Made by a program: the position numbers and the translations under genes
Origin: Deinococcus sp. LM3
Lineage (GTDB): Bacteria > Deinococcota > Deinococci > Deinococcales > Deinococcaceae
DNA: 32,000 bases
Assembly (NCBI RefSeq): GCF_002017875.1
Contig: NZ_MUFV01000005.1
Location: 75,437 to 107,436 of the forward strand
Reading direction: 5' to 3'
Shown here: one piece after another, positions 4,407 to 23,394 of the stretch
Numbering within the stretch: position 1 is the first letter of the stretch
Layout of the letters: the number at the start of each line of letters is the position of its first letter
Notes under the pieces: generated by a model
Told to the model about the DNA's origin: nothing
Database searches by the model: none
What the model saw: the letters and a program-made list of their open reading frames with translations, nothing else

Positions 4407-4431
4407 GTTGACAATCTCCAAATTTGTCAAC
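4407..4431. promoter_or_regulatory. inverted repeat GTTGACAA-N9-TTGTCAAC, possible operator or origin element
   Basis: Perfect 8-bp arms in the non-coding region upstream of the putative replication gene. Confidence 0.35.
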
Positions 4432-5771: not shown

Positions 5772-5802
5772 ATTCGCTGTTCGCGATTCGCGAACAGCGA
5801 AT
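5772..5802. promoter_or_regulatory. perfect 31-bp palindromic operator immediately upstream of a TATACT -10 and the ATG
   Basis: ATTCGCTGTTCGCGA-T-TCGCGAACAGCGAAT (15-bp perfect arms). TATACT at 5802-5807, ATG at 5814, suggesting a leaderless or near-leaderless transcript. Confidence 0.75.
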
Positions 5803-5813
5803 ATACTGAGACC

Positions 5814-8490: not shown

Positions 8491-8739
8491 CTACCCGTTT
8501 CCGCGTAACAGATCTTGCATGGATAGCTTAAGTGCAGTAGTCAGTCGCAGGAGAGTTGTGAACTGCGGGTCGTACTGCGCACTTTCGATTTTGCTGATGT
8601 GGCTTCGCGAGAGGTTGGCACGGGCGGCAAGTTCTTCCTGACTGTATCCAGAGTTTTGACGTGCCTGCCGGATCTGAGCCGCCATCCACTCCAACGCCTG
8701 TTGTTCATGGGCTTGGTAGGTTCGAGGTGTGCGGGCCAT
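8491..8739 (-). CDS. XRE/Cro-family HTH transcriptional regulator (C-protein-like)
   Basis: EWMAAQIRQARQNSGYSQEELAARANLSRSHISKIESAQYDPQFTTLLRLTTALKLSMQDLL is a classic XRE HTH. Confidence 0.9.
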   Translation of the reverse strand: MARTPRTYQAHEQQALEWMAAQIRQARQNSGYSQEELAARANLSRSHISKIESAQYDPQFTTLLRLTTALKLSMQDLLRGNG

Positions 8740-8771
8740 TCCACCTACAGTGCAAGAGTTGATCTGACTGT

Positions 8772-8807
8772 GCCACCTATTATAATATGCATATTATAAT
8801 AGGTGGC
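8772..8807. promoter_or_regulatory. perfect 36-bp palindrome carrying divergent TATAAT boxes
   Basis: GCCACCTATTATAATATG/CATATTATAATAGGTGGC. Plus-strand TATAAT at 8781-8786 with TTGATC at 8759-8764 (16-bp spacer). Mirror TATAAT on the minus strand at 8798-8793, between the XRE gene and the dpd-like operon. Confidence 0.85.
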
Positions 8808-8858
8808 GTGCAGGTGTGACGAATGTTTGGGTAGATCAGGACCAGTCAGGAGGGAAGA

Positions 8859-9827
8859 GTGAAGTATTTTTGCGGCTACACCCCATGGGACTTCCCAATC
8901 GCGCAACTTGACCCCTACGCTCACATGCTCGTCTCGCCGACCACCTATTCGCCAACGTACAGGTACGACTTCCACCCGCCACAGGAGGTCATGCTCGATA
9001 GTGGCGCCTTCCATCACGGTCGGCGTAACACGCATCGTCACCGCCTGCGCACCTTGCATGATCAACTCAAAATTGCCGAACAGTACCCAGGGAGCACGGT
9101 CACTCTTGCCCACAGTGATGTGCTCTTGCGGCCAGAGGTTGATCCACGCCGGAGTATTCATGAAACCCTCGTGAATGCCGAGTGGTTCATGCGGCAGGAC
9201 CTGCCGAGTGGGTACCGACGAATGACTGTCGCTCAAGCACGCACTCCTGACGAGATGTACCTCGTGGTTTCTCAACTGGCTCAATTTGAGCCTGAATTGA
9301 TCGGTATAGGTGGTCTCGCGAATCTCCACCGTACCCACCGCAAACTCCTTCCATTTATGCTCGAAGGAGCGGTGGAGGCCGCCGGCGACCTTCCCCTCCA
9401 CGCACTCGGCGTCACTGCACAGCACATTCTCCAACGGCTACGCATCAACAACATCTACAGTTGCGACTCTGCCACTGCCATCTGGTGCGCCATCTATGGC
9501 AGCGTTGTCTATGCCCGTCCATACCGCCGTTACCGTCTGATCAGCGAGAAATCCAGCAGGCCCGAATCTCCACAGGAAACAGGCTACTACAGCAGTCTGA
9601 CTCGCCCTCTCGCCTGCACATGTCCAGTGTGCCGAACAGTTCCAGAAGAGTTACTAGGCAGTGACTCGCGCGCTAAATACGCCCGTTACATTCACAACTA
9701 CTATCACATCAAGCTTGAGATCGAGGGAGAGGGAGAATGGCAGGCAGTTTACTCATCGGCCGAATACCAGTCCGTTATGACGACCTTTCTCTCCTCCAGG
9801 AGCTCATCGAACAGCACCCAGGCATAA
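8859..9827 (+). CDS. compact TGT-like (DpdA-superfamily) protein
   Basis: MLDSGAF, IGIGGLA, LPLHALGV, IYSCDSATAI, and zinc-site-like CTCPVC followed by YARYIHNYYH, matching the TGT CxCxxC...H pattern. Confidence 0.7.
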   Translation: MKYFCGYTPWDFPIAQLDPYAHMLVSPTTYSPTYRYDFHPPQEVMLDSGAFHHGRRNTHRHRLRTLHDQLKIAEQYPGSTVTLAHSDVLLRPEVDPRRSIHETLVNAEWFMRQDLPSGYRRMTVAQARTPDEMYLVVSQLAQFEPELIGIGGLANLHRTHRKLLPFMLEGAVEAAGDLPLHALGVTAQHILQRLRINNIYSCDSATAIWCAIYGSVVYARPYRRYRLISEKSSRPESPQETGYYSSLTRPLACTCPVCRTVPEELLGSDSRAKYARYIHNYYHIKLEIEGEGEWQAVYSSAEYQSVMTTFLSSRSSSNSTQA

Positions 9828-10525
9828 CGTTTAAAGCACTCAAGGAGACTTTAACGCCACACTGGACGTACTACCTGTCAAGCTCGGCCAGTCTGCTCAA
9901 AGAAACCCTGAGCTTTGGCACAACACTGGGCCTCTTCGCTTCAAGCGCTGAACGGTCATGGGATGACCGCACCTTCAGCACTCCCTATGAATCGAAGCAT
10001 CTTCGTGCCACGATTCTTCATCTCCTGTCCGCGCAATCAGACACCTCCCAGCGGGCCTTTCGTGGAGTTCATGACGAATTGATCGACCAGGGGCATGTCC
10101 ACACGGATATTTCCAGCATCCTCGAATGCATGGAGACTGGGCCCTATGGTCAGGTCTTCCGCTGGAACGATACGAAAGTCAACTTCTGGAGTCAGTTCAT
10201 GCACGACCTGGGTCTGGTCATCCGGCTTCCACCGGAACGGGTGGTCCTGAGTCCGACCAGCTCTCTCCTTCAAGAACTGCTGCCTGCACAGGGCGGCCCC
10301 GTTCGCCCGTTGTTGGAAACGTGGCACCGCGATTATTACGCCGTCTTCACGCGTCTAGGCGAGGTTCACGAAGGACTTGCACGGGCTCTCCTGCGACTGG
10401 AACAACAAGGACACATGACATTCACGTACGCGAGTGACGCCGTCGGCAGTGTGCTGTTATGCGGCCGTCGCATCAGTCACTGGACTCACGCCGCCGCCGG
10501 AGGCACCCATGTGGATTCCCTTTGA
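9737..10525 (+). CDS. hypothetical protein, DpdG-position candidate
   Basis: 262-aa ORF between a TGT-like gene and a DpdH-like ATPase. Overlaps the previous ORF by 91 nt, so the true start may be further downstream. Assignment is by context only. Confidence 0.5.
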   Translation: MAGSLLIGRIPVRYDDLSLLQELIEQHPGITFKALKETLTPHWTYYLSSSASLLKETLSFGTTLGLFASSAERSWDDRTFSTPYESKHLRATILHLLSAQSDTSQRAFRGVHDELIDQGHVHTDISSILECMETGPYGQVFRWNDTKVNFWSQFMHDLGLVIRLPPERVVLSPTSSLLQELLPAQGGPVRPLLETWHRDYYAVFTRLGEVHEGLARALLRLEQQGHMTFTYASDAVGSVLLCGRRISHWTHAAAGGTHVDSL

Positions 10526-13418
10526 TCCTGCCGACGTTGCTCAGGTCTTCACCACCGAATCCCGTCAGAAGCACGAGCGAATCTTCACGCTAACACACAC
10601 AAGCATGAACCGAATTCTCGTCTCGCACAACCGCGTCGGTCTTTCCAATGGCCAGTTTGTCGGTGAGCATGCAGTACTCGATCTGATTCAACAGTCTGCT
10701 CCGCTGGATAGCAATCGCGTCTGGTTCATCGTGGGAGAAACAGGCAGTGGCAAGTCTGAACTCTGCCAGTGGTTGGAGTACCAGTTGCGTGAACGGCACC
10801 TACCCCTGCACATCTCCAGGCGGCAAGCAAATCTCACCGGCATTCTCGATGTGCTGCACACCCATTTACCGTCCGGCCTTCAGGGGCAGACGACTGACCT
10901 GCCGCAGGACGTGTTGACGGATCACCTTCGCCTGCACCTCATGCTACGCGCCCACCGGGAAGGCCGCGGCCTGGGGTACGTCGAGCAGTTGCTGCCCTTT
11001 CTCCCTGACCTCGCCCGGCGGCTCTATCAACCGCTGGCTTCGTTTGAATTGCCACCCCACCTGCCTCCTGCACCCGCAGATGTTCCTTTCACGGCCTGGT
11101 TGTTCAGCGCCGTTCGCGAAGTCTTGGGTCTCCAGTCACTCGAACCCACCCTGCGTGCACTGGCCGAACATACCGCCCAACTCGGGAAACGTCCGGTCCT
11201 TTTGCTGGAAGACATCACCACTCTCGGCTTCTTACGTGACGATCTCCTCGACTACATTTTTGATCTCTCCGCTCCAGGGTTCGACGCGGTCATCGGGCTG
11301 ACCAGCGGTTTTGAAGATACCCACCTTCACCGCGACGGAGACCTTTCAGAGATGGCGTATGTCCGTGACCGTCTCAGTGCCCGGTTCCAGTTATCGCACA
11401 AGAGTGGAGAAACGTTTTTCCTGAACCAACCTCAAGATCTCCATGATCTGGTCCGGCGCTACCTGGGCTGTCTGCCGGCTCAGTCGGGCGGATCTTCGCC
11501 CGCGTTTTCAGGCCTGTACCCGTTTTCACCCACCATGCTCGACCGTCTATACACACATCTGGTCGAAAGTGGTAACCCGCGTCAAACGCCACGGAATCTA
11601 CTCGACGCTGTTATCAAACCTTCCCTGTGTCTGAATGAACCACCCCACGTCACTCTGTTCCGGGCACACCCTTATTTGCGCACGCCCAGCGTTACCTTTT
11701 ACCATCAAGACATTCCACCGGAACTCCAAGGACTGCTGTACTGGCATGGTGAGGTCCGGGACGGAAGTGTTCACGTTCCGGACGATGTGGCGCAGGCATT
11801 CGGTTATGATTCTGTTCCTCCGGTTCCCTGTTTTCCCAATCCCACAGGATCAACGTGGCTCTTCGGAAAGACGGCGGATGATCCAACAGATCTGTGGAAA
11901 GAAGCCATCCGTGAACTGCAAGCCTGGCAATCTGCGGGTGCTCCCTTTCCCAAACGCCAGTATCTCAAGCGCGGGATTGAACGACTTCTCCGGGCCCTGC
12001 TGGATCCGCGCCCTATCCAGCATCCCCGTCTGAATGCGCTCAGCGCAGATCCTTTAGAGTACACGCGCGGAGGCGATCACCTCCCTATTTACTTACCCGA
12101 GAGCGGTGACGTGCGTCCTGAGCATTGGCCGAGCCTGCACTTCCCCCGCACTCTTCCGCCCCAACTGCTTGAAGAATGCCTCACCTATGCGTTCTCCGCC
12201 AATCGCCATGTAGAATGCTTTGCCGATCTGGGACATACGCGACAGGTTCTCGAAGATGTTGTCTCCGATTTCCGGAGTGACGTGCGCGATCAGATCGGAC
12301 GTCTCACCGGACAATCATGGTCGAGGATGGTCTTTGGTCTCTGGTGGCTCTGTCAACATGTCTGCCAGGGCCATCCCCTGCAGATGAACGGCGGGGATGG
12401 CAAACGCGCCCTTTTGCAGTATGATCTCGCCCCAAAAGAACTGCGAACGGCCTGGTCGGATGAGCGTCGCCACCGCGTGTTACACCGCACTCACCAGGAA
12501 CTTCGGGCGAATCGTGATCACTACCGGGGCTTATTTGTGAGCCTCTTCCATCACAGAGACGACCTGATGGACCCCGTGCTCTATGAACAGGAGTGCCGAC
12601 AGTTCGATCCCAGTCTGTTCATGGATACCCTGGCCACGCTTTCACTCTCACGCCTCTCGGCGGCGCCCTACCGGCAACGGGGCAGTAAGCTCTCGTTGAC
12701 GCAACTCCTCCAACCCGCCGTGGAATACGCCGCAGCCCTCAAGGCATACGTCCTTCAAGACGAAGACCGTCTCCAGTGGACGGCCGTGGAACGCAGCCTT
12801 GAACACGCCATTCAACAGGCAGATGAATTGGACCTAGCCTGCAGACGTATTGAGCGTCTGGCTCATCAGGCCGGATGGACCATCACTGCCCCGCCGACCA
12901 GTCACACGTGGCGGTCCGGCGAGTGGGCAGGTGTCCTGCGTCAGTCCCAGCAGGCCAGTCGCGACTTCAAGAACCATCCTCCGATTGTGCAGATCACGGT
13001 GGCGCGCACGTGGCGGGAACGCCTGGAACAAATAGAACCGATCCAGTGGATGAACGCTGTTAAGGTGTTCCGAGACAGCGCTGAACGCATTCACCAGGAG
13101 AGGCACCCCGTTGAACAACTGCCCACACGACAGACGCATCATTCGAGTGACGTTCACCTGAATGATCTGGAAGATCTCGCCAGTACGCTGGCGGCGGCCG
13201 CGGACGCCGCCGACACCTTGCCACAGCATGTTGCCGAGCAGACGGCCCGTTCGATCCGTCGCCTGCAGGCGACGCAGACTCAGAGCATTGAAGCCGTCCT
13301 GGGCCGTCATGGCATTCACGCACCCGTGCAGATGGCGCGGCAGTCACGGGAGGCCAGTCTGGTTCTTCTGAGTGACCTGCTGGAATGCATGGTGGACCTC
13401 ATGGACTGCCCACCGTGA
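10509..13418 (+). CDS. large P-loop ATPase, DpdH-like
   Basis: VWFIVGETGSGKSELCQWLEYQL (Walker A), RPVLLLEDITTLGF (Walker B-like), about 969 aa from the ATG at 10509 that overlaps the upstream stop. DpdH naming is by size and context. Confidence 0.7.
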   Translation: MWIPFDPADVAQVFTTESRQKHERIFTLTHTSMNRILVSHNRVGLSNGQFVGEHAVLDLIQQSAPLDSNRVWFIVGETGSGKSELCQWLEYQLRERHLPLHISRRQANLTGILDVLHTHLPSGLQGQTTDLPQDVLTDHLRLHLMLRAHREGRGLGYVEQLLPFLPDLARRLYQPLASFELPPHLPPAPADVPFTAWLFSAVREVLGLQSLEPTLRALAEHTAQLGKRPVLLLEDITTLGFLRDDLLDYIFDLSAPGFDAVIGLTSGFEDTHLHRDGDLSEMAYVRDRLSARFQLSHKSGETFFLNQPQDLHDLVRRYLGCLPAQSGGSSPAFSGLYPFSPTMLDRLYTHLVESGNPRQTPRNLLDAVIKPSLCLNEPPHVTLFRAHPYLRTPSVTFYHQDIPPELQGLLYWHGEVRDGSVHVPDDVAQAFGYDSVPPVPCFPNPTGSTWLFGKTADDPTDLWKEAIRELQAWQSAGAPFPKRQYLKRGIERLLRALLDPRPIQHPRLNALSADPLEYTRGGDHLPIYLPESGDVRPEHWPSLHFPRTLPPQLLEECLTYAFSANRHVECFADLGHTRQVLEDVVSDFRSDVRDQIGRLTGQSWSRMVFGLWWLCQHVCQGHPLQMNGGDGKRALLQYDLAPKELRTAWSDERRHRVLHRTHQELRANRDHYRGLFVSLFHHRDDLMDPVLYEQECRQFDPSLFMDTLATLSLSRLSAAPYRQRGSKLSLTQLLQPAVEYAAALKAYVLQDEDRLQWTAVERSLEHAIQQADELDLACRRIERLAHQAGWTITAPPTSHTWRSGEWAGVLRQSQQASRDFKNHPPIVQITVARTWRERLEQIEPIQWMNAVKVFRDSAERIHQERHPVEQLPTRQTHHSSDVHLNDLEDLASTLAAAADAADTLPQHVAEQTARSIRRLQATQTQSIEAVLGRHGIHAPVQMARQSREASLVLLSDLLECMVDLMDCPP

Positions 13419-13459
13419 GCAACACCAGGGATGGCTCAGTACGTCGAAGCTAACATTGC

Positions 13460-13486
13460 GAGGTTCCGGCAAAGCGCCGGAACCTC
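13460..13486. terminator. putative bidirectional terminator hairpin
   Basis: GAGGTTCCGGC-AAAGC-GCCGGAACCTC, perfect 11-bp stem, between convergent genes. No T-tract. Confidence 0.5.
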
Positions 13487-13559
13487 TCCATTCCCGCTCC
13501 AACGTACTTTTTCTGCTGCGCGCTCCGCGCGGTTTATCTACAAGATAAACGCAGTGTAC

Positions 13560-15545
13560 TTAATTCAGGAGGCGTTCCATGGGCCGCTCCAGGTTGTCCC
13601 GTCGTTCCCGGGCAGCCTCATAGCGGTCTCGTTTAACGAGGAGGCTTTCATCGCCGGCAAGGATACGGGCCTGCACGTCCTGGAGTGCCCGGAGGTACAT
13701 GTTGATGTTATGAACGGCGCGGCCCATGTTCGCTTCGTTGCCACCGTTGTAGGGACGGCCACTCGGGTCGCGTAATGTTCCACCCTGTGCCCGGGTGTCC
13801 CACCCTTCGGCGCGCATGGCAGAGCACGCAGGACAGTGGCAGGGCGGTAACTCATCGCTTCCAGGAACGTTCTCAACAATCCGGTACTTTTTGAGGAGGT
13901 TGGGGTCTTCCGGGACGTACTGAAGGAAGGATCCGGCCGTGAAGGCAGACATATACATGCTGGAACCGTCAAAGGAGTCAACACCCAGATGTGTGAGCGT
14001 GGCAGCCCATTTGATACTGGAAACCCCCAGGACGTGAATATACAGATCCGGCACCTGGGCCCGGTACTGTAAGGCGTCTTCAACGCACCGGTAAACAAAG
14101 TACGGATCACGACTTGATTTCAGGGCGAGACTGCCCAGGGCGATGTGCCGGTACCCGAGATCCAGGTAATGCTCCATCATTTCGTGCCGTTGCTCGAAGG
14201 ACCCGTGGGTGACGGCCATGAGACGGTGCGCACCGGCGAGGGGCTTCATGGCTCTTGCGAACTGATAGGAGATTTCAATTTTTTCGCGCGCAACCTGCGG
14301 ACTGTCGAGACCGTCAAGGATCATCATATCCGGGGAGACGATAATGTCACGTCCTTCCCGGGCCCCTGCATCCTCAAACAGTTTCATGGTGCCCTCTGGC
14401 GTCAGGGGTCCGTTGCGTTTTTTCAGGATGGGGTATGGCTCTGCCTTGTAACTCCAGGCGCCGCAATCGTAGATATTGCCCTCATCAGTTTGTGGCAAGG
14501 GATCACTGTTAGGGTTGTGATACGCCAGAGAGGTCAAGTACCCCCTGGGATCCGTTTCAATAAAGTTCCAGATGCGTTCCATCTTGGGGGTTGGCAACGG
14601 CGCCCCTGCGTGATCCTGTGTCAGTTTGAGCTTGTCACGGTTGTTAATCACCACTGTGAATCGTGCCCGCGGAGGCACCGCGAGTTCATGCTGGGCTTTC
14701 GGGTAAAACGCTTCACTGCTCAAGTTCAGAGGGTTGAAGCCCAGTCCGGTGCGGTGAATGCTGGGACCTGTGGTGACCGGCATGGGAGGCACTGAAGCTT
14801 CTACCTCAGCCTCTGACATGAGCGTTGGTGCCGTGCGGGCCGCCTGCCAGGTTTCCAGATAGGTGATGGCGCTCTGAGGATCGGCGTGCCAATCGTGCAG
14901 CACTTCTGGATGTTCTGCGACGGCCCGCGCGAGTTGATGAAACAAGAAGCCTTTCAGGCCAACCATACCGTATCCGAAGCGACGTGCATCCTTATTGACC
15001 AGAGGGAGAACAGCCTGCTTGGCGGCATGCTCGGGAAGAATGGCGGCACTCCCGCCACTGGCCAGAAAAATGAAGCTTTGATCTGGACGACTCTGCAGTG
15101 GGAGAAGGGCCGACTTCAGATAATTCTCGCCGAGCAGGAAAATGACAATATCATAAGACTTTATTCTTGCATTCAGGGCCTCGTGGATGCCCAGCTGCTT
15201 ACTCCAGTCTAAGACTTCCCGGCTTTTTAATTCGTTGAAAGACGTTTCGTAGGGGGCAATAAATTTATACTGATCGATTAAGCCATAACCGGCTGAGATG
15301 ATTTCCAGCCGACTGACAACACCTTTGATCTTCGAGAGAATATCAAAAGCTCGGGAGACCTGTTGGTGCTGCGCACCCGTGTATAAGCGCTTGGCTGAAG
15401 TTCGGTACTCCGCCAACTCTTGCTCACGAGCCCGAAGGTGATCTCCTCCCTTGCGGAAATCCTCTATCACAAGTTGATTTGGCGGTTTGTATAGCTTTGC
15501 GCCCGTACAAGAACTGATGACTAACAAGCTTGGGTACTTGGGCAT
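13560..15545 (-). CDS. dpdA: DpdA-like protein: N-terminal DUF6884/YaaA-like domain fused to C-terminal TGT-like domain
   Basis: N-term SLLVISSCTGAKLY...ISAGYGLIDQYKFIAPYETSF. C-term YRHIALGSLALK, DLYIHVLGVSS, LGVDSFDGSSM, CHCPACS...RAVHNINMY. Directly follows queC. Confidence 0.75.
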   Translation of the reverse strand: MPKYPSLLVISSCTGAKLYKPPNQLVIEDFRKGGDHLRAREQELAEYRTSAKRLYTGAQHQQVSRAFDILSKIKGVVSRLEIISAGYGLIDQYKFIAPYETSFNELKSREVLDWSKQLGIHEALNARIKSYDIVIFLLGENYLKSALLPLQSRPDQSFIFLASGGSAAILPEHAAKQAVLPLVNKDARRFGYGMVGLKGFLFHQLARAVAEHPEVLHDWHADPQSAITYLETWQAARTAPTLMSEAEVEASVPPMPVTTGPSIHRTGLGFNPLNLSSEAFYPKAQHELAVPPRARFTVVINNRDKLKLTQDHAGAPLPTPKMERIWNFIETDPRGYLTSLAYHNPNSDPLPQTDEGNIYDCGAWSYKAEPYPILKKRNGPLTPEGTMKLFEDAGAREGRDIIVSPDMMILDGLDSPQVAREKIEISYQFARAMKPLAGAHRLMAVTHGSFEQRHEMMEHYLDLGYRHIALGSLALKSSRDPYFVYRCVEDALQYRAQVPDLYIHVLGVSSIKWAATLTHLGVDSFDGSSMYMSAFTAGSFLQYVPEDPNLLKKYRIVENVPGSDELPPCHCPACSAMRAEGWDTRAQGGTLRDPSGRPYNGGNEANMGRAVHNINMYLRALQDVQARILAGDESLLVKRDRYEAARERRDNLERPMERLLN

Positions 15546-15547
15546 AC

Positions 15548-16252
15548 TTACTCTTGTATACCGTCCTGCGCCTGGGCGTAGCGGGTGGCGAGGTCCGGGC
15601 GGCCCGCCTCGATCAGCGCCTTATCGCGGATGCGGCATGAATCGCACACCCCGCACGGCTCCTCGCCCCCCTGGTAGCAACTCCAGGTCACGTCGATCGG
15701 CACGCCCACCGCCAGCGCCTCGCGCACGATGTCCGCCTTCGTCATCTCCGCCAGCGGCGCTGTCAGTACCGCCCCGCGCCCCTCCAGGCCCGCCTTCGTC
15801 GCCAGGTCCGCCAGCGTCTGGTACGCCGAGAGATACTCCGGCCGGCAGTCCGGGTACCCGCTGTAATCCACCGCGTTGATCCCCAGGAACACCCGCTCCG
15901 CGTCGATCGCCTCGGCCAGACTCAGACCCACGGCAATAAAGACCGTGTTGCGCCCCGGCACGTACGTCGGCGGAATCACGCCGTCCTCCGTCCCGTCCGT
16001 CGGCACGGCCATCGACTCGTCCGTCAGGGCACTCCCCCCGAACGACCCGATATTGATGTCGATCACCCGGTGCACGGCTCCGAAGTGCGCCGCGACCGTC
16101 GCTGCCCGCTCCAGTTCCACCGTGTGCCGCTGCCCGTACCGGAACGACAACGCCGTACACGCATACCCGTCCCGCGTCGCCATGCCCAGCACCGTGCTCG
16201 AATCCAGCCCGCCCGACAGCAGCACCACTGCCCTCTTATTCTGATTTGTCAT
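15548..16252 (-). CDS. queC: 7-cyano-7-deazaguanine (preQ0) synthase QueC
   Basis: [17 protein letters not shown]-loop, [35 protein letters not shown] zinc site. Confidence 0.96.
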
Positions 16253-16377
16253 GTTGATTCTCCGAGGTTAATAGTGAATGGAAGGCTCTGAAGGCCTCTC
16301 CCTTCGGGAGAGGCCTGTTCTACACCTGAACAACTAAGTCCTGCCTGAGAGATCACTCTCACTGCACCAACAGCCTT

Positions 16378-17070
16378 TCAGTACCCAAGTTCCGCGTTCC
16401 CACCGAGGGGGATGAGGCGCTTGTCACTGTGCGCGTCGAGGTCGTCGGCGCGGTACAGCTTGTGCATCTGGTACCCGGCCCGCAGGCGCGGGTTCTCCTT
16501 CACCGCCTGCGTGATGCCGTTCAGCACAGTCAGATCCCGCTCGCGGGCCCGGCTCCACTCCGGGTGCAGCCAGATCACCGCCCCGTCCGGCAGGCCGGTC
16601 AGGGTGTCCAGGCCCGCCTGAATATCACCGGGTTCGTGGACGATGATCTTCACCTCGTCCGCGAGTACCACGACTTCCGGCAGCGGGGGCTGCCCGAACG
16701 GTTTGGGCGACAGCGTCACCCAGTCCAGTTCACCCCGCAGCGGTGCGATCCCGCTCGTCTCGATGTGCACCCGGCGGCCCAGCGCGTGCAGGGCGTCCGT
16801 CAGGGGCGCGAGGTCGAACAGGATCGGCTCGCCCCCCGTGACCACCACCACCGCGCCCTCTGGACTCTCGGCCCGCACCACATCGGCCAGTTCATCGGCA
16901 CTCATGAGGGTCACGCCGTCCGGGCGGTAGTCGCGGTGCCACGTGCCGGCACTGTCGCACCAGGGGCAGGCCTGCGGGCAGCCGTACAGGCGGATGAAGT
17001 ACGCCGCGCGGCCCAGGTGAACCCCCTCGCCCTGCCAGGTGTAGAACCGCTCGTACACCGGGTACTTCAT
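16378..17070 (-). CDS. queE: 7-carboxy-7-deazaguanine synthase QueE (radical SAM)
   Basis: YERFYTWQGEGVHLGRAAYFIRLYGCPQACPWCDSAGTWH, VVVTGGEP. Confidence 0.95.
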   Translation of the reverse strand: MKYPVYERFYTWQGEGVHLGRAAYFIRLYGCPQACPWCDSAGTWHRDYRPDGVTLMSADELADVVRAESPEGAVVVVTGGEPILFDLAPLTDALHALGRRVHIETSGIAPLRGELDWVTLSPKPFGQPPLPEVVVLADEVKIIVHEPGDIQAGLDTLTGLPDGAVIWLHPEWSRARERDLTVLNGITQAVKENPRLRAGYQMHKLYRADDLDAHSDKRLIPLGGNAELGY

Positions 17071-17081
17071 TGTTGCTCCGC

Positions 17082-17107
17082 TGGAATGGTTCGCCAGAAC
17101 CGTTCCA
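17082..17107. promoter_or_regulatory. hairpin/operator-like inverted repeat just upstream of the queE start
   Basis: TGGAATGGTTC-GCCA-GAACCGTTCCA, 11-bp arms with one mismatch, ending 11 nt before the queE ATG on the minus strand. Confidence 0.5.
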
Positions 17108-17134
17108 GTCGAGCGGATGTGAGAAGGAGCCCAG

Positions 17135-17201
17135 CGGATTCCGGGCGTGGAATTTGGACCTCGATGGGGTGCCGAGGTGCAAATGGAACAGACGGAATCC
17201 G
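17135..17201. repeat. 67-bp imperfect palindromic element between queD and queE
   Basis: CGGATTCCG...TTTGGACCTCG-N9-CGAGGTGCAAA...CGGAATCCG. The outer ends match those of the 135-bp structured repeat. Confidence 0.6.
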
Positions 17202-17211
17202 GTTCACGCCC

Positions 17212-17622
17212 TCACTCCCAGTACTCGCAGGAGCTGTCGGGTGTCTCCCAGAGCGTCACGTGCAGGCGCAGGTCTGCGCCGTCGTCCCCGTCGGGCAGGT
17301 CGGCGCGCACGCGCTTCATGGTGTGGCGGTGAATGTACGCGGCGACGACCTCGGCGGTCGTGTCGTCCCCGAGTTCCGGGATGTCGTTCAGGTATGCGTG
17401 GTCCAGGCCGCCGGCGTCCACGTCCTTCTTCGCCCATTTGAGGGTCTTGAAGTCCGCGACCATGATGGCCCGCTTGACGTGCGCACTCGGGCGGAGTTTC
17501 TCACTGGTGAGTTCCAGCCGGACGCGGTACGTGTGCCCGTGCAGTCTCCCGCACGGCCCGTCGTAGCCGGTGATCACATGTGCCGAATCGAACGTGAACT
17601 CCGAACTCAGTTTCCAAGGCAT
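17212..17622 (-). CDS. queD: 6-carboxytetrahydropterin synthase QueD
   Basis: SSEFTFDSAHVITGYDGPCGRLHGHTYRVRLEL with HGH metal motif, ADFKTLK, DHAYLND. Confidence 0.95.
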   Translation of the reverse strand: MPWKLSSEFTFDSAHVITGYDGPCGRLHGHTYRVRLELTSEKLRPSAHVKRAIMVADFKTLKWAKKDVDAGGLDHAYLNDIPELGDDTTAEVVAAYIHRHTMKRVRADLPDGDDGADLRLHVTLWETPDSSCEYWE

Positions 17623-18257
17623 CAGCGGACTCCTGCGGGTGCGGTGGTGAGGGCGGGCTCCTGCGGCTCACTGACCTGGGTTCGCACCCAGCGAACCAGG
17701 GGAATAAGCAGAAGGCTGATCAGCATCTTCAGGATGATCTGCCCGAGCATCAGGTTCAGCAGGGGCGCGCCGGTCCCGGCAAAGGCCAGCGTGATGAACA
17801 CGATGGTATCCAGGGTGGTGCTCACGGCGTTCGACGCGATGACCTGCACGGTGACCCCACGGTGACGCAGACGCTCGAAGATCAGGGCGTCGAGGGCCGT
17901 GCTGATCAGGTACGCGGCCAGGCTCGCCAGGACCACGCGGACCGTGGAACCGAAGACCACCTGATAGGCGTCGTCCTGGAAGAATCCGGGTTTCGGAAGG
18001 GCATTGACGAGTAGACCGTAGGCGGCGAGCAGCGCGTTGGCGGCGAAACCGCCCCACAGGACCGCCTTGGCGGCCGTCCAGCCCCCCGCGGTGTGGATGG
18101 CGTCCCTAAGGGTGAAGGTCAGGGAGTACAGGAAGATCGCGCCGGGAAAGACCAGGGAGCCGAGCTGCACGAGGCGACCGGCGGTGACGTTACTGACGAG
18201 TTCCGCGCCGATGTAGACGGAGATCAGGATGGTCAGCAGGGTGGTGCGTTGAGTCAT
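17622..18257 (-). CDS. yhhQ: queuosine precursor transporter (YhhQ/QueT-like, VUT family)
   Basis: Hydrophobic multi-TM protein (LISVYIGAELVSNVTAGRLV...FPGAIFLYSLTFTLRDAIHTAGG), one-base overlap with queD. Confidence 0.85.
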   Translation of the reverse strand: MTQRTTLLTILISVYIGAELVSNVTAGRLVQLGSLVFPGAIFLYSLTFTLRDAIHTAGGWTAAKAVLWGGFAANALLAAYGLLVNALPKPGFFQDDAYQVVFGSTVRVVLASLAAYLISTALDALIFERLRHRGVTVQVIASNAVSTTLDTIVFITLAFAGTGAPLLNLMLGQIILKMLISLLLIPLVRWVRTQVSEPQEPALTTAPAGVR

Positions 18258-18507
18258 GGGAAACCTTTCGGGTGAAGCGACTCCAGCGCGCGTGGGACGA
18301 TCCGGCCCGAATCGCCACGGGCCCCTCCAGCAGGAAGGGGAGTGACGAGAGGGCGGCGGATCCCAGGGGCCGGGAAGCCGGAGAGATCAGAGCAGCGTGA
18401 CGACGCGGCCGTGATGTTGATGTGCACACGTCAGTCGGGTGCCTGCCACCGTTCAACGGTGTGCAGGTCAGTCGGGGCTGACGTCGGGCGGAGCGTTCGT
18501 GGTCGCT

Positions 18508-18659
18508 CTAGCCGGTGGGTCCCTGAGGGGGGCAGCGCCCGGGCGCGAAACCGTCTCGTTTCGTGGCGGGGCGAGGTCCTGCGGGACCGTCAGGTGGGGC
18601 GCCGTGCGCCTCCCACCTGGAAGGAGGGGAGATCCAGGATACGCCGGAGTACTTGTTCA
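18508..18659 (-). CDS. possible short upstream ORF in the leader between the TGT-like gene and yhhQ
   Basis: AAGGAGCTCCC-ATG then MNKYSGVSWISPPSRWEAHGAPPDGPAGPRPATKRDGFAPGRCPPQGPTG-stop. Confidence 0.3.
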
Positions 18660-18779
18660 TGGGAGCTCCTTGGGACCTGTGCGGCATTACAGGCCCGGGG
18701 GGTGGGCGCAGTCTGCGCCTGGCAGAGTCTTGCACATCCCTTCTGCCTGCGGGTAAGAACCCCCGGCAGGGTGAGGGGC

Positions 18780-19673
18780 TCACCGCTGCAAGGTGCGGGT
18801 GGTGAGCGTGCTGAAGCGGGCAGTGGGGAGTGGGAGGGACGCGCCGATGGCCGCCGCGAGGTTGCACAGGGCCAGGTGAACGCGTTCGTGCGGGGTGAGG
18901 TGGGCGTGCCGGACCTGCGGGGCCGAGTAGAGACGGCCGTCCGCGGCGTACTTCACGTAGGAACTGGAATCCACGCTGTCCACGCCGAGCCGCGAGACCC
19001 GCCCGACGTGGTCCGGGTGGCCGATCCCGAAGGCGTGGATGGGCAGGTCACCAGCTGCGGCGCGGACAGCCCGGATCACGTCGTCCACCATGTCTGGTTG
19101 GGACATGCGTAGGACGAGCCCCCCGATGGCGACTCCTTCGAATCCAGCCTCCCGGTACTCCTGCGCGAGCTCCGCGGCGGCCTGCGCGTCCCAGCCCTGC
19201 ACGACCCCGTACAGGGGCAGGTCGGTGCGGCGGCGGTTGTGCAGGGCCCACAGCGCGTTGGCGCGCGTCAGGGCGTGATAGCGCCGGGCGTCGCGGGTGG
19301 GCAGACCGGGGGGAATGAGCAGGTCCAGGGTGAAGCCGACGTCCGCGACGCGTTCCTGCAGTTCCAGGACGCTGCTGGGTGTTATGCGCCGACCCTGGCA
19401 GTCGATCACGCCGAGTCCCGCGCGGGTGCGGGTCACGGTGGCGGCCGTGAAGACACTGGCGAACCCGCCGGAGTCCACGAGCAACGGCACGCTCAGGTCC
19501 GGCGCTTCCCGCGCGTCTTGCAGGAAGAACGCGCTGACCATGACCGCGGGTGCGAGCCGGGGCAGGTAGGGGCGGATCAGGTCGTCGAGGGGGTACTTCT
19601 CGCCGAAGGTCGTGACGGGCACGAACGCGGGGAAGTGCAGGGGGCCTTTGCGAGTGTTCAGGGTGCGGGTCAT
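18780..19673 (-). CDS. TGT-like/DpdA-superfamily protein lacking the CxCxxC zinc motif
   Basis: PLLVDSGGF, LPLYGVVQGWDAQA, GFEGVAIGGLVL, LPIHAFGIGHPDHVGRVSRLGVDSVDSSSYV. No CxCxxC cluster. Confidence 0.75.
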   Translation of the reverse strand: MTRTLNTRKGPLHFPAFVPVTTFGEKYPLDDLIRPYLPRLAPAVMVSAFFLQDAREAPDLSVPLLVDSGGFASVFTAATVTRTRAGLGVIDCQGRRITPSSVLELQERVADVGFTLDLLIPPGLPTRDARRYHALTRANALWALHNRRRTDLPLYGVVQGWDAQAAAELAQEYREAGFEGVAIGGLVLRMSQPDMVDDVIRAVRAAAGDLPIHAFGIGHPDHVGRVSRLGVDSVDSSSYVKYAADGRLYSAPQVRHAHLTPHERVHLALCNLAAAIGASLPLPTARFSTLTTRTLQR

Positions 19674-20078
19674 GCGTTCATCCAGAGGTGCTCGAAGGAC
19701 CAGTCGGGGGACGGGTCGTGGTTCAGGGCGGTGAGGTCGGCGAGCGCACGGCTACCCTGACGCGGTCATTGCTCGTTCAGGCCAAAGAACGCCTCGCTGA
19801 TCCTCATAGACTGGTCCTGTTCACGGATGGTTTTCTGTCTTCTGACATCTTTCAGTTTTAAGCCGTATGCTGGCGAGTGCCGTCCCAGACGAATAAAATC
19901 CGTTCCATTTCTCTTTCCAGCTCAAAAAGCCGCACCCAGCCGACACATTTCATCCTGACCTGACCAGCCAGTGCACCCCAGTCGGGCCAAGAGGTCTCCT
20001 CTTGGTCCGACGCTGTTTGGTCAAGGTGCTCAACATGGCAGAGGAAGAAGCAGGCCACACTCAGGCAGAGATAGCGTA

Positions 20079-20213
20079 ATACGGACTCCGATTGAATGGG
20101 CTGCAAAGCCCGTTCAATCCGAGCGAAGCGAGTGGGAGCAAAACGGGTTCCGGACGTGGAGCCGGCAATCCGGTGAAGTCCCGGATTGTCGGCGAAACAA
20201 ACGGAATCCGTAT
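20079..20213 (-). repeat. structured dispersed repeat, copy B (inverted relative to copy A)
   Basis: ATACGGACTCCGATTGAATGGGCTGCAAAGCCC...GAGCGAAGCGAG...CAATCCGGTGAAGTCCCGGATTGTCGGCGAAACAAACGGAATCCGTAT. The outermost 12 bp are inverted repeats with one mismatch. Confidence 0.85.
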
Positions 20214-20362
20214 CATTCGTCGTTGGGCTACCGAACACCGGATGAGTGGGCCAAGGAGGCCAGTGGCCGGCCTGCCGTCCCCATGTGCGGGCAGGACACC
20301 GCACATGCGGCCGTCATCCCGACCACTGGGTGAAAAAGGGAAGACGACTGTGTACGCTCGTT

Positions 20363-20410
20363 CTTGAATCGAGTCTCTACTCGAAAGTGTCCAAGCTTTG
20401 GGGTCAGGCC
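20363..20410. repeat. 48-bp direct repeat, copy 1
   Basis: CTTGAATCGAGTCTCTACTCGAAAGTGTCCAAGCTTTGGGGTCAGGCC, matches 20694..20741. Confidence 0.75.
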
Positions 20411-20693
20411 ATACCCCTGAATAGAGGTCATTCGGAAATTGAGTGACAGGGGGCCGCACAGATTGGCGGCCCCCTCTGCCGATGCGGCTGAGCGATGCCC
20501 AATGGGCCGTCCTTGCACTTCTCATTCCACCCACCACCACCCGCGGTCGGCCACGCCCGTTCTGATCGCGAGGTCCTCGAAGGTATCCTCTGGGTTCTTC
20601 GCACGGGAGCGCAATGGGCTGCCCTGCCAAACCCCACCCAAGACCACCTTCCACGACCGGTTCCAGGAGTGGGTGCTGATGATGAACCCTGCT

Positions 20694-20741
20694 CTTGAGC
20701 CGGGTCTCTACTCGAAACTGTCCAAACTTTGGGGCCAGCCC
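20694..20741. repeat. 48-bp direct repeat, copy 2
   Basis: CTTGAGCCGGGTCTCTACTCGAAACTGTCCAAACTTTGGGGCCAGCCC. Confidence 0.75.
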
Positions 20742-20743
20742 AA

Positions 20744-21334
20744 TTAGACAGGTGGATGTAAAAGTCGCCGGGCCCGATCCATGGCTTGAACCAAAGGGTC
20801 TTGGTCACCGTGGCGCCGAAGCCACGGACCGGTTGGTCCGTGCGCGCCTTTCAATGCCTGAAGCCACAGAGTGCCGAGATAGTGCACAAGGACATGATCC
20901 AGATCCTCTGAAGGCGGTGCGGCGCTTATGAGCGAAGCAGATAGGCCTGAAGACTGATCCACCGGAGGCATAAATTCTTGCTCTGCGTCGTGCAGTAGAG
21001 TAAGACCTTGGTCTACAGCAGTTCCACGTTTCTCTGGAACTTCACCATGAGGCGGCAAGTGCACTTCCTGGACCCCCTGGGCGCTACGGTCTTCATACAG
21101 TCGGCTCAGCAGTTTGAGCGCGTCACGCACATCTACAGGTTTGGTACTGCACTGCACCACGGTCCAGGGCCCCAGTTGCCGTTCCTCAACTCCCGCCGCC
21201 AAGACGAAGGTCAGGCCCAGAGTGACTTCAGGGTAGGCCACAGGCAACGTCCCCACGTCGGCGTGTGTGAAGTTGTACTCCGCTTCAGGCAGGGAGGCCA
21301 TCTGCAACCGGCCAGCAAGTTCAAGAGCGTTCAT
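20744..21334 (-). CDS. hypothetical protein, operon-terminal
   Basis: 196-aa ORF whose ATG overlaps the stop of the upstream helicase gene. Confidence 0.65.
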   Translation of the reverse strand: MNALELAGRLQMASLPEAEYNFTHADVGTLPVAYPEVTLGLTFVLAAGVEERQLGPWTVVQCSTKPVDVRDALKLLSRLYEDRSAQGVQEVHLPPHGEVPEKRGTAVDQGLTLLHDAEQEFMPPVDQSSGLSASLISAAPPSEDLDHVLVHYLGTLWLQALKGAHGPTGPWLRRHGDQDPLVQAMDRARRLLHPPV

Positions 21335-23394
21335 AGCCCTTCCCGGATATCAACGCCACTGAGTTCTCGTAGTAACGGGGTCGCCTGTCCCTCTGTAGCG
21401 AGGAGGTACAACAACTCACCGCTACGGGTCATACCAACGTAGAAACGCATCCGCTCGCGTTCCATGAGAATGTCTTGCTCCTCACGCTCAGTTTCCGACC
21501 CCAAGGCGCCAAGGTGCTCAGCGTCTAAACCAACCAGCATGACCACAGGAAATTCCAAGCCTTTAGCAGTATGAATCGTCATCACTTTGACGCTTTCGCG
21601 CAGAACGTCCAGATCCTCCAGGACTGGATCCCAGTGGTCAGTGGGGATACCTTGCTTGGACAGGGCGTACGCGTATTCTTGGGCGAGCCCTTCCGTAGTG
21701 GCGATCACAGCAATATCACGCAAGCGTAAGAGGTTTTCTTCGCGAAATCGCGTGATTTCCTCAATGACGAAGCGTTTGATCTGGTGCTCCTCAACGAAGC
21801 GCATTAATATGGGACGTGGGCCACTGCGCTTAACTGACGCCATATCTATTAACTCACCGTGTTCCTTGAGATGCACATTTCGGGAGGCCAGATCAGCGGC
21901 GGTACGCACCACTTCGCGGGTATTGCGGTAATTGATTTTCAGCGCATACGAACGCCCCCGGACATCGAGGCCTACCTGCTTCCATGAAAACCCACGCGAG
22001 TACAAGCTCTGCGCGGCGTCTCCTAACACCAGGACGGTTTTGTGCTCAGTGCCTTGGCCCCGTGTGAGACGCTGCAACACCCGCAGTTCCAAGGGCGTGA
22101 GATCTTGCGCCTCGTCAACAATGACGTCGTCTACCACTTCGAGTTCGGGATGGTCAAGCAGGAGGCGGTACAGGCGGGTGACCGCGTCCCCCCAGTCCAT
22201 CAGGCCGCGTGCCTGCAAGTGAGCGTTGTAGGCACTTAGTACTTCCCAGACCACAGCGCGGGACAGTGGACTGAGTGCCTGCTTGCGCCCGTACCGAGGC
22301 GCTTGACGGTAAGCATCCATGTCCGGAAGCCCGAAGCCTTTTATCACTCGCTGAATTTCAGCGTAGAAGAACTCTGGAGCGCGCGCGAGCACCGCGGAGT
22401 GCCGCTGAGTTCTCACCTCATTGATCGCCTGCCGAATGAACTGCAGCGCCTGGTCGCGGTCCACGAGAGGCTGCTGGACTCCTGCCGCGTCCAGCATGCG
22501 CAGAGCCCATTGCCGGTAATCCTCAATGCGGAGGGTGGCTGGCAAGGTACCAGTCACTTCTTGCACCAGACTTCGGGTGACGCGTTGCAGTACGGGATTG
22601 TAAGTAATGAACAGTACCTGCCGTCCTGCCTGTGCGAGCCGGACAGCGCGGTGAATGCCTACGGTCGTCTTTCCACTGCCGGCCACACCTTTAAGCAGTG
22701 TGGCTCCAGTATGAATTCGGTTCACATGCTGTAGTTGCTCCTCGGCGAGCTCCAATAGAAGGTCCTGGATGCTGCCACGGGTGTACGCCTCCAGTTGCTC
22801 CAAAGACGCACGTTTGAATACACGGAAGGGATCCGCTAGGGGCTCGGCCGGGTCCGTCGCGAGCGCCAGAATCCACTCTTGGGTTTGTGCGGGCAGTCCG
22901 GGAAGTTTCAGGGCATCATCCAGGGTAGGCGCATCACGTAATGCGCGGGCTAATAGCGCGGGCGCTCCCAACAGCCGCAATTGATGCACAGTAAAGGCGC
23001 GCAGGGGAAAATCCGCGTCGCTTGGAGGATGGTTCCATGTGGTGGGCACCTGGAAGTCTGCCGTTTGTGGTGTGGCTGTGGCCTGCGGTTCAAGTTCCCA
23101 ACTCAGAAGGTCCTGGGTTCCAATATCCCGGGCGGTCAGTCGGTCGAAAACACTGTGAGGCACCACCCGCAGCAGCATGGGTTCACGGTTGCGTCCCCAC
23201 TGGAAGAGCATGCGCCAGTTGTCATTCACCCGGCAATACCAGGCGTCCATCAATTCCAGGCGGCGCACCTGCAGGCCGGTGGCCTGCGGATGCGTCAGAA
23301 GGGTTTTCACCGTACTGATGATGGCCGGCTGCATCGGCAACGCCGCGTTATGTTTCAGATCATCCAGGAAACGGGGGCTCACAAGCATCGTCAT
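21331..23394 (-). CDS. SF1 (UvrD/Rep-like) helicase with RelE/ParE-like N-terminal domain
   Basis: LLKGVAGSGKTTVGIHRAV, VIVDEAQDLTPLELRVLQRL, LVLGDAAQSLYSRGFSW, INYRNTREVV, VKVMTIHTAKGLEFPVVML, RFYVGMTRS. N-term AWYCRVNDNWRMLFQWGRNREPMLLRVVPHSVFDRL. Confidence 0.85.
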   Translation of the reverse strand: MTMLVSPRFLDDLKHNAALPMQPAIISTVKTLLTHPQATGLQVRRLELMDAWYCRVNDNWRMLFQWGRNREPMLLRVVPHSVFDRLTARDIGTQDLLSWELEPQATATPQTADFQVPTTWNHPPSDADFPLRAFTVHQLRLLGAPALLARALRDAPTLDDALKLPGLPAQTQEWILALATDPAEPLADPFRVFKRASLEQLEAYTRGSIQDLLLELAEEQLQHVNRIHTGATLLKGVAGSGKTTVGIHRAVRLAQAGRQVLFITYNPVLQRVTRSLVQEVTGTLPATLRIEDYRQWALRMLDAAGVQQPLVDRDQALQFIRQAINEVRTQRHSAVLARAPEFFYAEIQRVIKGFGLPDMDAYRQAPRYGRKQALSPLSRAVVWEVLSAYNAHLQARGLMDWGDAVTRLYRLLLDHPELEVVDDVIVDEAQDLTPLELRVLQRLTRGQGTEHKTVLVLGDAAQSLYSRGFSWKQVGLDVRGRSYALKINYRNTREVVRTAADLASRNVHLKEHGELIDMASVKRSGPRPILMRFVEEHQIKRFVIEEITRFREENLLRLRDIAVIATTEGLAQEYAYALSKQGIPTDHWDPVLEDLDVLRESVKVMTIHTAKGLEFPVVMLVGLDAEHLGALGSETEREEQDILMERERMRFYVGMTRSGELLYLLATEGQATPLLRELSGVDIREGL

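Follow-up and report, generated by a model that had tools for sequence, protein, structure and literature searches.

A candidate Dpd-family restriction-modification island of Deinococcus sp. LM3 with a predicted DpdC::DpdA fusion and a second DpdA paralogue

A 32,000-nt stretch of Deinococcus sp. LM3 (NZ_MUFV01000005.1, positions 75,437-107,436, forward strand; hereafter the window, whose positions are used as coordinates throughout) probably represents a Dpd-family restriction-modification island, that is, a system expected to place 7-deazaguanine in DNA by means of paralogues of tRNA-guanine transglycosylase (TGT). Genes were called from an open reading frame (ORF) listing combined with profile scans (Pfam, PADLOC, NCBIfam/TIGR equivalog models and PHROGs). 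Placement of the locus in the Dpd family rather than in tRNA modification is supported by the agreement of profiles, structure prediction and synteny, and modification of DNA is predicted from homology. The original prediction, drawn from the sequence alone, had proposed a variant dpd-like modification/defence island at 8491-19673, and this is supported by the fold of a fusion protein that matches 7ui4, by the equation of its DUF6884 domain with DpdC, and by matches to DpdJ (E-value 6e-134) and DpdK (4.5e-12). The Dpd content of that interval stands, but its right-hand limit does not, as the stretch from 20744 to beyond 32000 adds a restriction-type operon to the island. All complete ORFs of the system (15/15) are without interruption. 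The features of the left half of the island are as follows.

8491..8739, minus strand: XRE/HTH_3 transcriptional regulator, 82 aa (Pfam HTH_3 2e-15), divergent from the dpdA' operon
8740..8858, no strand: divergent promoter region of 119 nt between the HTH gene and the dpdA' operon
8859..9827, plus strand: DpdA', a stand-alone DpdA paralogue, 322 aa (no Pfam match; DpdA models 1e-5 to 2e-6)
9737..10525, plus strand: DpdG-like protein, 262 aa (NCBIfam DpdG 3e-9, 36.6 bits against a cut-off of 80; PADLOC DpdG 8e-4)
10434..13418, plus strand: DpdH-like P-loop ATPase, 994 aa (NCBIfam DpdH 7e-11, PADLOC DpdH 1e-10, N-terminal 120 aa only)
13560..15545, minus strand: DpdC::DpdA fusion, 661 aa (N-terminal DUF6884/DpdC, disordered linker of ~25 aa, C-terminal DpdA-type transglycosylase)
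15548..16252, minus strand: QueC, preQ0 synthase (TIGR00364, 219.8 bits against a cut-off of 150.3)
16378..17070, minus strand: QueE, radical-SAM 7-carboxy-7-deazaguanine (CDG) synthase (top models all QueE; TIGR04322 8e-29, below the equivalog cut-off; Pfam Radical_SAM)
17212..17622, minus strand: QueD, 6-carboxytetrahydropterin (CPH4) synthase (Pfam PTPS 7e-29; TIGR03367 4e-22, 78.4 against 89.25)
17622..18257, minus strand: YhhQ-type preQ0/preQ1 transporter (TIGR00697, 82.8 bits against 50.95; Pfam Vut_1 2e-33)
18258..18779, no strand: G+C-rich non-coding spacer of 522 nt upstream of yhhQ (no credible ORF, no Rfam family)

In the 661-aa fusion protein Pfam detects both DUF6884 (1e-9; 39.2 bits against a cut-off of 30) and TGT (3e-8), and its PADLOC matches are DpdC (3e-6) and DpdA. 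DUF6884 is the Pfam family of DpdC (PMC11888242), which is described as having a YaaA-like fold with CxxxK and LSAxxG motifs (PMC11701544). When 43 fusion proteins were aligned, C13xxxK17 and S84-A-G86 of the DpdC domain, D360, D406 and D526 of the TGT domain, and the Zn ligands C569, C571, C574 and H612 were found to be invariant or nearly so. The protein thus has the Asp pair and Zn site of a DpdA as well as the DUF6884 domain, CxxxK and LSAxxG of a DpdC, the latter fused and not present as a separate protein. D360, D406 and D526 correspond to Asp95, Asp130 and Asp256 of the DpdA found in the Montevideo serovar of Salmonella enterica (S. Montevideo), where the D95A and D256A substitutions abolish activity (PMC10164549). 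The AlphaFold2 (AF2) model, with a mean predicted local distance difference test score (pLDDT) of 84.6, shows a disordered linker (residues 242-267) between two well-folded domains, and its best match in the PDB is the DNA preQ0 insertase DpdA (7ui4, 2e-11). The original prediction had noticed a DUF6884-TGT fusion at this position; its identity as DpdC::DpdA was not recognised. On the NCBIfam DpdA model NF041059 the protein scores 43.8 bits against a cut-off of 200, and its Paenibacillus orthologue matches the DpdA model at 1e-125. Relatives of the fusion number 228 in GTDB species representatives, with members in Cyanobacteria, Bacillota, Deinococcota, Planctomycetota, Verrucomicrobiota and others, one cyanobacterial member having already been named DpdA by NCBI; in viral contigs the fusion is rare (4 loci).

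The fusion gene is the last in a minus-strand series that runs from a short TGT gene, treated below, through the 522-nt spacer, yhhQ, queD, queE and queC. QueC, QueE, QueD, YhhQ and the DUF6884-TGT fusion had been predicted to form one strand-coherent block; the block is on the minus strand, and profiles recover each of them at the expected place. QueE scores 100.7 bits against an equivalog cut-off of 200, with QueE models remaining the best. Gaps of no more than 2 nt are found between the queC stop and the fusion start (2 nt) and between yhhQ and queD. Neither QueF nor FolE was found among the window ORFs scanned; the lack of QueF agrees with what had been proposed, and since FolE is absent from the window, GTP cyclohydrolase I must come from the host, as had also been foreseen. 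The presence of preQ0 genes and yhhQ inside some dpd islands is already known (PMC5699537).

Convergent with the que-fusion operon is the plus-strand dpdA'-dpdG'-dpdH' operon, in which the predicted TGT-like protein, small protein and large ATPase correspond to DpdA', a DpdG-like protein and a DpdH-like protein with Walker motifs. The family profile of DpdA' matches S. Montevideo DpdA (7ui4, 5e-7) better than any tRNA TGT, and its AF2 model (pLDDT 79, predicted template modelling score 0.80) returns TGT folds as top matches. Residues D47-S-G-A, H85-x-D87, Q126, G151-G152 and D203, the Zn motif C253-x-C255-x2-C258 and H279/H283 are all invariant in the 12-member DpdA' family. DpdA' is thus predicted to be catalytically intact, as it keeps every residue expected for base exchange. 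A word-based search returned 12 homologues, the named ones all from Deinococcus, and a full hidden Markov model (HMM) search of 1.84 billion cluster representatives returned 26 at E <= 1e-30. The DpdG-like gene is syntenic in all Deinococcus relatives. In the DpdH-like ATPase, which would start at 10509 by the annotation of a relative, both the Walker A motif (GETGSGKS at residue 101) and the Walker B motif (VLLLED at 255) are intact, and the score on the DpdH model is 41.3 bits against a cut-off of 450. Ratios of nonsynonymous to synonymous substitution rates (dN/dS) were 0.07-0.09 for DpdA', about 0.13 for the DpdG-like protein and 0.06-0.10 for the DpdH-like protein (0.05-0.13 over the trio and fusion), values that show purifying selection only, with dS saturated for most gene pairs. 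The comparison of the 994-aa DpdH-like protein with its D. taeanensis (locus L006) counterpart was rejected as an alignment artefact. Between the trio and the HTH gene, consensus matching predicts back-to-back sigma-70-like sites at 8759-8786 (plus strand) and 8822-8793 (minus strand), each with 10/12 consensus matches.

Synteny ties these genes together. Four other Deinococcus genomes, those of D. aerophilus, D. taeanensis (on a plasmid), D. hopiensis and D. rhizophilus, carry the same module of HTH gene, dpdA'-dpdG'-dpdH' and fusion, with the HTH gene at a conserved position in each; near the module lie DpdE and DpdF in D. taeanensis and DpdE in D. hopiensis and D. aerophilus. A distant version, fusion plus a DpdA'-like gene, occurs in 12 Paenibacillus/Bacillus loci, where the CxCPVC and HNYYH motifs of DpdA' are kept. 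The one such locus with ORFs listed (Paenibacillus, L072) reads fusion, x, dpdA', dpdG'-like, dpdH'-like, queCDE and then dpdE, the trio being flanked by the fusion and queCDE and sharing their strand, and tblastn coordinates in others of these loci fit a similar layout. Compared with D. hopiensis, nucleotide identity is 60-77% over the trio and fusion, and it is 90-96% over the stretch that runs from queC to the spacer, yhhQ included (95% for the spacer at 18258-18779 against the stretch upstream of yhhQ), with a sharp, recombination-like breakpoint at the fusion/queC junction (15550-15600). This jump in identity indicates that the DNA-facing genes move and diverge as one cassette, apart from the biosynthesis genes, a pattern in keeping with a specificity module and in favour of the fusion and the trio being functionally linked.

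Across 88 sources, the partners of the fusion fall into three mutually exclusive classes. The cyanobacterial class has DpdB and a 278-aa TGT-like protein; the Deinococcota/Bacillota class, with 19 sources including the window, has DpdA' and a DpdH-like ATPase; and the third has HerA/DUF87-type genes with or without a helicase and short TGT. Each class has its own stand-alone TGT paralogue (T278, DpdA' or T297), found beside the fusion in most, but not all, classified loci. DpdA' and DpdB occurred together in 0 of the 88 sources, DpdB being confined to the cyanobacterial class, as judged by single-query tblastn in the 10-kb flanks on each side, supplemented with a few HMM scans. Cyanobacterial DpdB as a tblastn query found nothing in the window or in the Deinococcus, Bacillota or Calidithermus loci, no DpdB/DndB match was obtained among the window ORFs scanned (Pfam and/or PADLOC; sequence to 32 kb only), and PADLOC/Pfam scans of the Paenibacillus and Calidithermus neighbours (L072 and L037) found none. 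Short-TGT matches of 25-30% in many loci were discounted because they overlap the fusion or T278 gene. In about 29 cyanobacterial loci (e.g. L004, 5770-6606) the 278-aa protein has no Pfam match but shows TGT-like DSG, GGL and DS motifs; these motifs make it a predicted second partner with a TGT fold, in clusters that do have DpdB.

The right-hand operon extends the island with a putative restriction half whose gene order is the canonical dpdH-I-J-K.

20744..21334, minus strand: 196-aa protein, last gene of the operon, its start overlapping the UvrD stop
21331..23394, minus strand: UvrD/GajB-like superfamily 1 (SF1) helicase, 687 aa (Pfam UvrD_C 9e-24; PADLOC NERD+UvrD 2e-44)
23405..24205, minus strand: DpdK-like nuclease of the phospholipase D (PLD) family (PADLOC DpdK 4.5e-12; Pfam PLDc_2 1.6e-4; motif H162-x-K...GSxN)
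24202..29538, minus strand: DpdJ, YprA-family SF2 helicase, 1778 aa (PADLOC DpdJ 6e-134; DEAD, Helicase_C; weak MZB 4e-4)
29576..30280, minus strand: DpdI-like protein, 234 aa (PADLOC DpdI 7e-5, weak; canonical place between DpdH and DpdJ)
30277..32000, minus strand: second DpdH-like protein, C-terminal part, at least 573 aa (PADLOC DpdH 9e-8, model positions 484-581; frame open at the window end)

DpdJ and DpdK are identified by their profiles together with their helicase and HxK motifs, whereas the matches to DpdG, DpdH and DpdI are partial and sub-threshold, with gene order and sizes that fit. A four-Cys DUF1998/MZB cluster is not claimed for DpdJ, where the MZB match is weak and a single CxxC was seen. 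The two DpdH-like proteins share just a short co-linear motif (E 0.016), and BLASTP found no similarity between the DpdG-like and DpdI-like proteins. No window ORF tested, the 196-aa protein included, matched DpdD in PADLOC, and DpdE and DpdF were not found in the window, at whose end the operon is cut within dpdH. The 196-aa protein has no match in Pfam, PADLOC or PHROGs. A scan of genome contigs found no relative of the second DpdH C-terminal fragment, a look-up of the exact DpdI-like protein gave no record, and megablast of 20.7-32 kb against PLSDB plasmids gave a 43-nt repeat as the sole match. In Calidithermus, queDEC, the fusion, yhhQ, UvrD-DpdK-DpdJ and dpdA' lie side by side, an arrangement that ties the right-hand block of the window to the same system; there, a UvrD orthologue that is 52% identical adjoins DpdK/DpdJ. 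At the N-terminus of the UvrD/GajB-like helicase (its first 90-110 aa), a weak, sub-threshold match to HigB/RelE (E 0.002) recalls the RelE-GajB helicase of ARMADA type II.

Between the two halves of the island lie three features that bear on its history.

18780..19673, minus strand: short TGT, 297 aa (Pfam TGT 9e-24; catalytic Asp pair D67/D235, no Zn motif)
19673..19741, minus strand: 3' stump of a DEAD/HHH_5 helicase gene, last 23 codons (69 nt), sharing 82% identity with the C-terminal end of the D. sonorensis helicase
20079..20742, no strand: IS5/DUF4096-type transposase debris and short repeats between the island halves (frameshifted DUF4096-like frames seen by eye)

The interval of the original prediction ends with the short TGT gene (18780-19673). 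This gene is separated from yhhQ by the 522-nt spacer, abuts the truncated helicase gene and was probably left over from another, helicase-linked system, so that it would not be a core component of this one. Its product keeps D67, D117, Q159 and D235 and has neither the CxCxxC...H motif nor C-terminal PUA-type domains; its family comprises more than 900 proteins of ~300 aa without a Zn motif, which are more than 50% identical across phyla (Cyanobacteria, Chloroflexota, Planctomycetota, Acidobacteriota, Gammaproteobacteria). Members usually follow a DEAD+HHH_5 helicase, as in D. sonorensis, whose copy is 86% identical to that of the window, and in Singulisphaera. The short TGT is absent from the D. 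hopiensis and D. rhizophilus modules, D. hopiensis keeping the spacer up to 15 nt from where the short-TGT stop codon would be. Several members of the family are labelled 'helicase' by JGI, and we found no published description of the helicase and short-TGT pair. As for the debris, the window has two copies of a 134-nt element (20079-20212 and 1976-2109, opposite orientation, 95% identity), and 50-nt direct repeats (20362-20411 and 20693-20742) flank frameshifted DUF4096/IS5-like frames; both kinds of repeat are probably small mobile-element debris.

In the model that we consider probable, host FolE with island QueD, QueE and QueC would make preQ0 from GTP and YhhQ could import preQ0, the pathway being established and its genes assigned here by homology. 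The TGT domain of the fusion would swap guanine in DNA for preQ0, using Asp526 as nucleophile and Asp360 as acid/base, and the DpdC domain attached to it would turn the nitrile into the amide by hydration in cis, yielding the deoxynucleoside of 7-amido-7-deazaguanine (ADG), dADG; conserved residues and the biochemistry of S. Montevideo point to both steps. The dpdA'-dpdG'-dpdH' operon would replace DpdB, its DpdH-like ATPase giving ATP-driven DNA engagement and DpdA' serving as a second catalytic or partner subunit. This substitution, proposed from mutually exclusive occurrence and gene position, is the weakest step of the model; it is favoured by the exclusivity with DpdB, co-inheritance with the fusion, the position of the trio in Paenibacillus, and the intact ATPase and transglycosylase motifs. 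By homology to dpdD-K, DpdH, DpdI, DpdJ and DpdK together with the UvrD-type helicase would restrict unmarked DNA, with the PLD protein DpdK as nuclease. The 297-aa TGT would be a leftover of a helicase-linked system and not required. A broader generalization is possible, although we hold it tentatively: DpdC::DpdA fusions would never work alone and would always be paired with an intact stand-alone TGT paralogue, and in Deinococcota/Bacillota DpdA', the DpdG-like protein and the BrxC/DpdH-like ATPase would form a DpdB-independent machine, whether a DNA transglycosylase that is heteromeric and driven by ATP or a reader that flips bases to detect the mark and couples writing to restriction.

Several points weigh against this model. 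That DNA is modified, which base it receives and that unmarked DNA is restricted are predictions from sequence homology, and the fusion, DpdG-, DpdH- and DpdI-like proteins score far under the NCBIfam equivalog cut-offs. The link between the DpdH-like ATPase and a transglycosylase is likewise a prediction, and canonical DpdG and DpdH are counted among the restriction genes (PMC10164549). The exclusivity of DpdB and DpdA' has the search depth given above; the window stops inside the second dpdH, and dpdB, dpdD, dpdE and dpdF could lie beyond 32 kb. Finally, the insertion sequence (IS) debris and the truncated helicase gene mark the locus as rearranged.

The restriction-side membership of canonical DpdG and DpdH raises the alternative, unlikely in our judgment, that the trio is the restriction or sensing half of the system: the TGT pocket of DpdA' would test guanines of incoming DNA and hand unmodified DNA to the DpdH-like ATPase with DpdJ/DpdK, leaving the fusion to write alone without an ATPase. 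The BrxC-like nature of DpdH/I (bioRxiv 2025.09.15.676423) and the placement of the Deinococcus trio under its own HTH-controlled promoter, apart from the que-fusion operon, would agree with this, and phage DpdA enzymes expressed alone without DpdB insert preQ0, such that a DpdA need not have an ATPase (PMC10516641). A pure reader would have no need of the catalytic residues, nucleophile Asp and Zn site that DpdA' retains in full, however, and in Paenibacillus the trio sits on the same strand among modification and biosynthesis genes; moreover, the DpdJ/K operon of the window already has a separate DpdH/DpdI pair. It is also conceivable, if rather improbable, that the fusion and DpdA' are two active writers with different motifs or substrates (e.g. 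ADG versus preQ0/CDG) whose marks are read by two DpdH-type modules. Profile-profile comparison shows the three TGT-like families of the window to be mutually distant paralogues, and the TGT domains of the fusion and DpdA' share just ~17% identity even though both active sites are complete. The window has two DpdH-like genes, every fusion class has a second stand-alone TGT paralogue (T278, DpdA', T297), and DpdA2 enzymes are promiscuous for preQ0, preQ1 and CDG (PMC10516641). Against two writers, no second tailoring enzyme (QueF, ArcS, DpdL/M/N) was found in the window, and a TGT-fold heterodimer such as eukaryotic QTRT1/QTRT2 would explain the constant pairing equally well.

Two further explanations deny the system itself. 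That the locus is a decaying mosaic no longer working as a system could be read from the helicase stump, the IS5-type debris and repeats between its halves, the failure to find DpdB, and the fragments of another system beside the D. taeanensis fusion gene. We regard decay as very improbable, given the 15 uninterrupted system ORFs with intact catalytic residues and Walker motifs, the dN/dS values of 0.05-0.13 and the module order kept across five Deinococcus genomes. Service to tRNA modification of the queuosine or archaeosine type, in place of DNA, we find scarcely credible. The cluster does hold a predicted preQ0 pathway, FolE aside, with a YhhQ transporter, and the short TGT best matches tRNA TGT structures (1iq8, 2e-13; Z. 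mobilis TGT, 3e-11). The short TGT, however, lacks the Zn motif and PUA-type domains, belongs to a helicase-linked family and scores 57.8 against 306.75 (Tgt) and 66.9 against 350 (TgtA) on the equivalog models; in the profile check that the original prediction had suggested, none of the TGT-like proteins of the window reached the Tgt or TgtA cut-off. The other two match DpdA best, QueF, QueA, QueG and ArcS were not found, and DpdC, DpdJ and DpdK are present.

The closest characterized system is that of S. Montevideo (dpdA-K; PMC10164549), with which the window shares a TGT-paralogue transglycosylase with its catalytic Asp pair and Zn site, DpdC (DUF6884), the YprA-type helicase DpdJ, the PLD nuclease DpdK and, by sub-threshold matches, DpdG/H/I-like proteins. 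It differs in that DpdC and DpdA form one polypeptide, DpdB and DpdD were not found, a second DpdA paralogue with extra DpdG- and DpdH-like genes stands under an HTH controller, and a UvrD/GajB-type helicase follows DpdK; the sequences are also very diverged. DpdB, a ParB/DndB-like ATPase, is needed by Salmonella DpdA (PMC10164549), and among genomes with dpdA, 92% have DpdB, 88% DpdC and 90% DpdD (PMC5699537). Cyanobacterial fusion clusters such as that of Leptolyngbya sp. FACHB-261 (L004) have a fusion of the same architecture (30% identical from end to end), with queD/queE as neighbours and DpdE/F/G/H close by, but keep DpdB, with its DndB domain, and a 278-aa TGT-like protein in place of DpdA'-G'-H'. 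BRIGADE and ARMADA type II, defence systems with a YprA helicase (bioRxiv 2025.09.15.676423), are likewise Dpd-like hybrids in which that helicase is joined by a PLD nuclease and deazaguanine genes, and the ARMADA II GajB-like helicase has a RelE-like N-terminus, as the UvrD of the window may; BRIGADE, however, is reported only in halophilic archaea, and ARMADA uses the PglX methyltransferase and not deazaguanine. The window helicase scores best on DpdJ models. Dpd-like diversity around YprA helicases was noted in the same work. Phage DpdA1-DpdA4 systems (PMC6884629, PMC10516641) resemble the window in having stand-alone DpdA without DpdB and queCDE genes. A phage origin was nevertheless rejected: PHROGs gave just weak TGT matches (1e-6 to 6e-5), no phage genes were found in the window, and the fusion is rare in viral contigs.

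The HerA/DUF87-type systems of D. sonorensis (L002, 4271-21696) and Singulisphaera (L007/L084) share with the window the DpdC::DpdA fusion and the short 297-aa TGT family. This type of fusion system recurs across phyla (also L049, L067, L068, L071 and L086) and comprises a DUF87/HerA-like ATPase, 407-aa and ~700-aa proteins, UvrD, PDDEXK, a DEAD helicase and the helicase and short-TGT pair, with no DpdB and no DpdA'. None of its partners (DUF87/HerA-like ATPase, 407-aa, ~700-aa, DEAD+HHH_5, UvrD, PDDEXK) is intact in the window. On the D. taeanensis plasmid (L006), HerA-type fragments lie by the fusion near IS elements (6663-6943 and 18137-18259), namely the C-terminus of the ~700-aa protein and the N-terminus of DUF87, a sign that the fusion gene may have been a site of partner-module exchange. 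In Nostoc sp. MS1 (L008, 8506-12798), a short-TGT member lies between a DnaB helicase and a 274-aa PF23859 (DpdA) protein, with MT-A70, a 2OG-Fe oxygenase and a cytosine methylase encoded in the same region; this is another two-TGT arrangement, possibly on a plasmid or prophage.

The probable setting of the locus is a plasmid or mobile island of Deinococcus. Its left flank (5733-7027 and 7376-8394) encodes a winged helix-turn-helix (wHTH) protein and an AbiEii-like nucleotidyltransferase (PADLOC candidate PDC-M21B, 9e-64), and also has a ParA/VirC1-type ATPase with a small ORF downstream. These genes suggest a plasmid or mobile-island setting with a neighbouring toxin-antitoxin or defence pair. 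A 540-aa ORF at 2164-3786 has no family match in Pfam or PADLOC, the 2-kb stretch at 3000-5000 has a G+C content of 51-53% against about 60-65% elsewhere, and no ORF of at least 110 aa was seen at ~3.9-5.7 kb. Scans of the window from end to end detected neither an Rfam family nor a tRNA gene, and hence no preQ1 riboswitch and no tRNA integration site.

In the literature searched, we found neither the DpdC::DpdA fusion described, nor its three classes of partner, nor the DpdA'-G'-H' module. A TGT system without DpdB or DpdC has already been proposed (BRC). GATOR-GC mining was anchored on dpdA and dpdB (PMC11888242), and mining anchored in this way would miss the DpdB-less fusion class. preQ0/ADG as a self mark in DNA is already established, such that the value of the locus lies in mechanism and diversity and not in a new principle. 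Dpd is the largest known restriction-modification system, and the island with its Deinococcota/Bacillota relatives offers a natural experiment on why DpdA needs the ATPase DpdB and on what DpdG, DpdH and DpdI do (PMC10164549). The three partner sets provide a clear basis on which to compare the coupling of 7-deazaguanine writers to ATPases, and the system is compact enough for reconstitution in E. coli. If the trio is truly a DpdB-independent machine, it would represent a second, previously unrecognized solution to the access of a TGT to duplex DNA.

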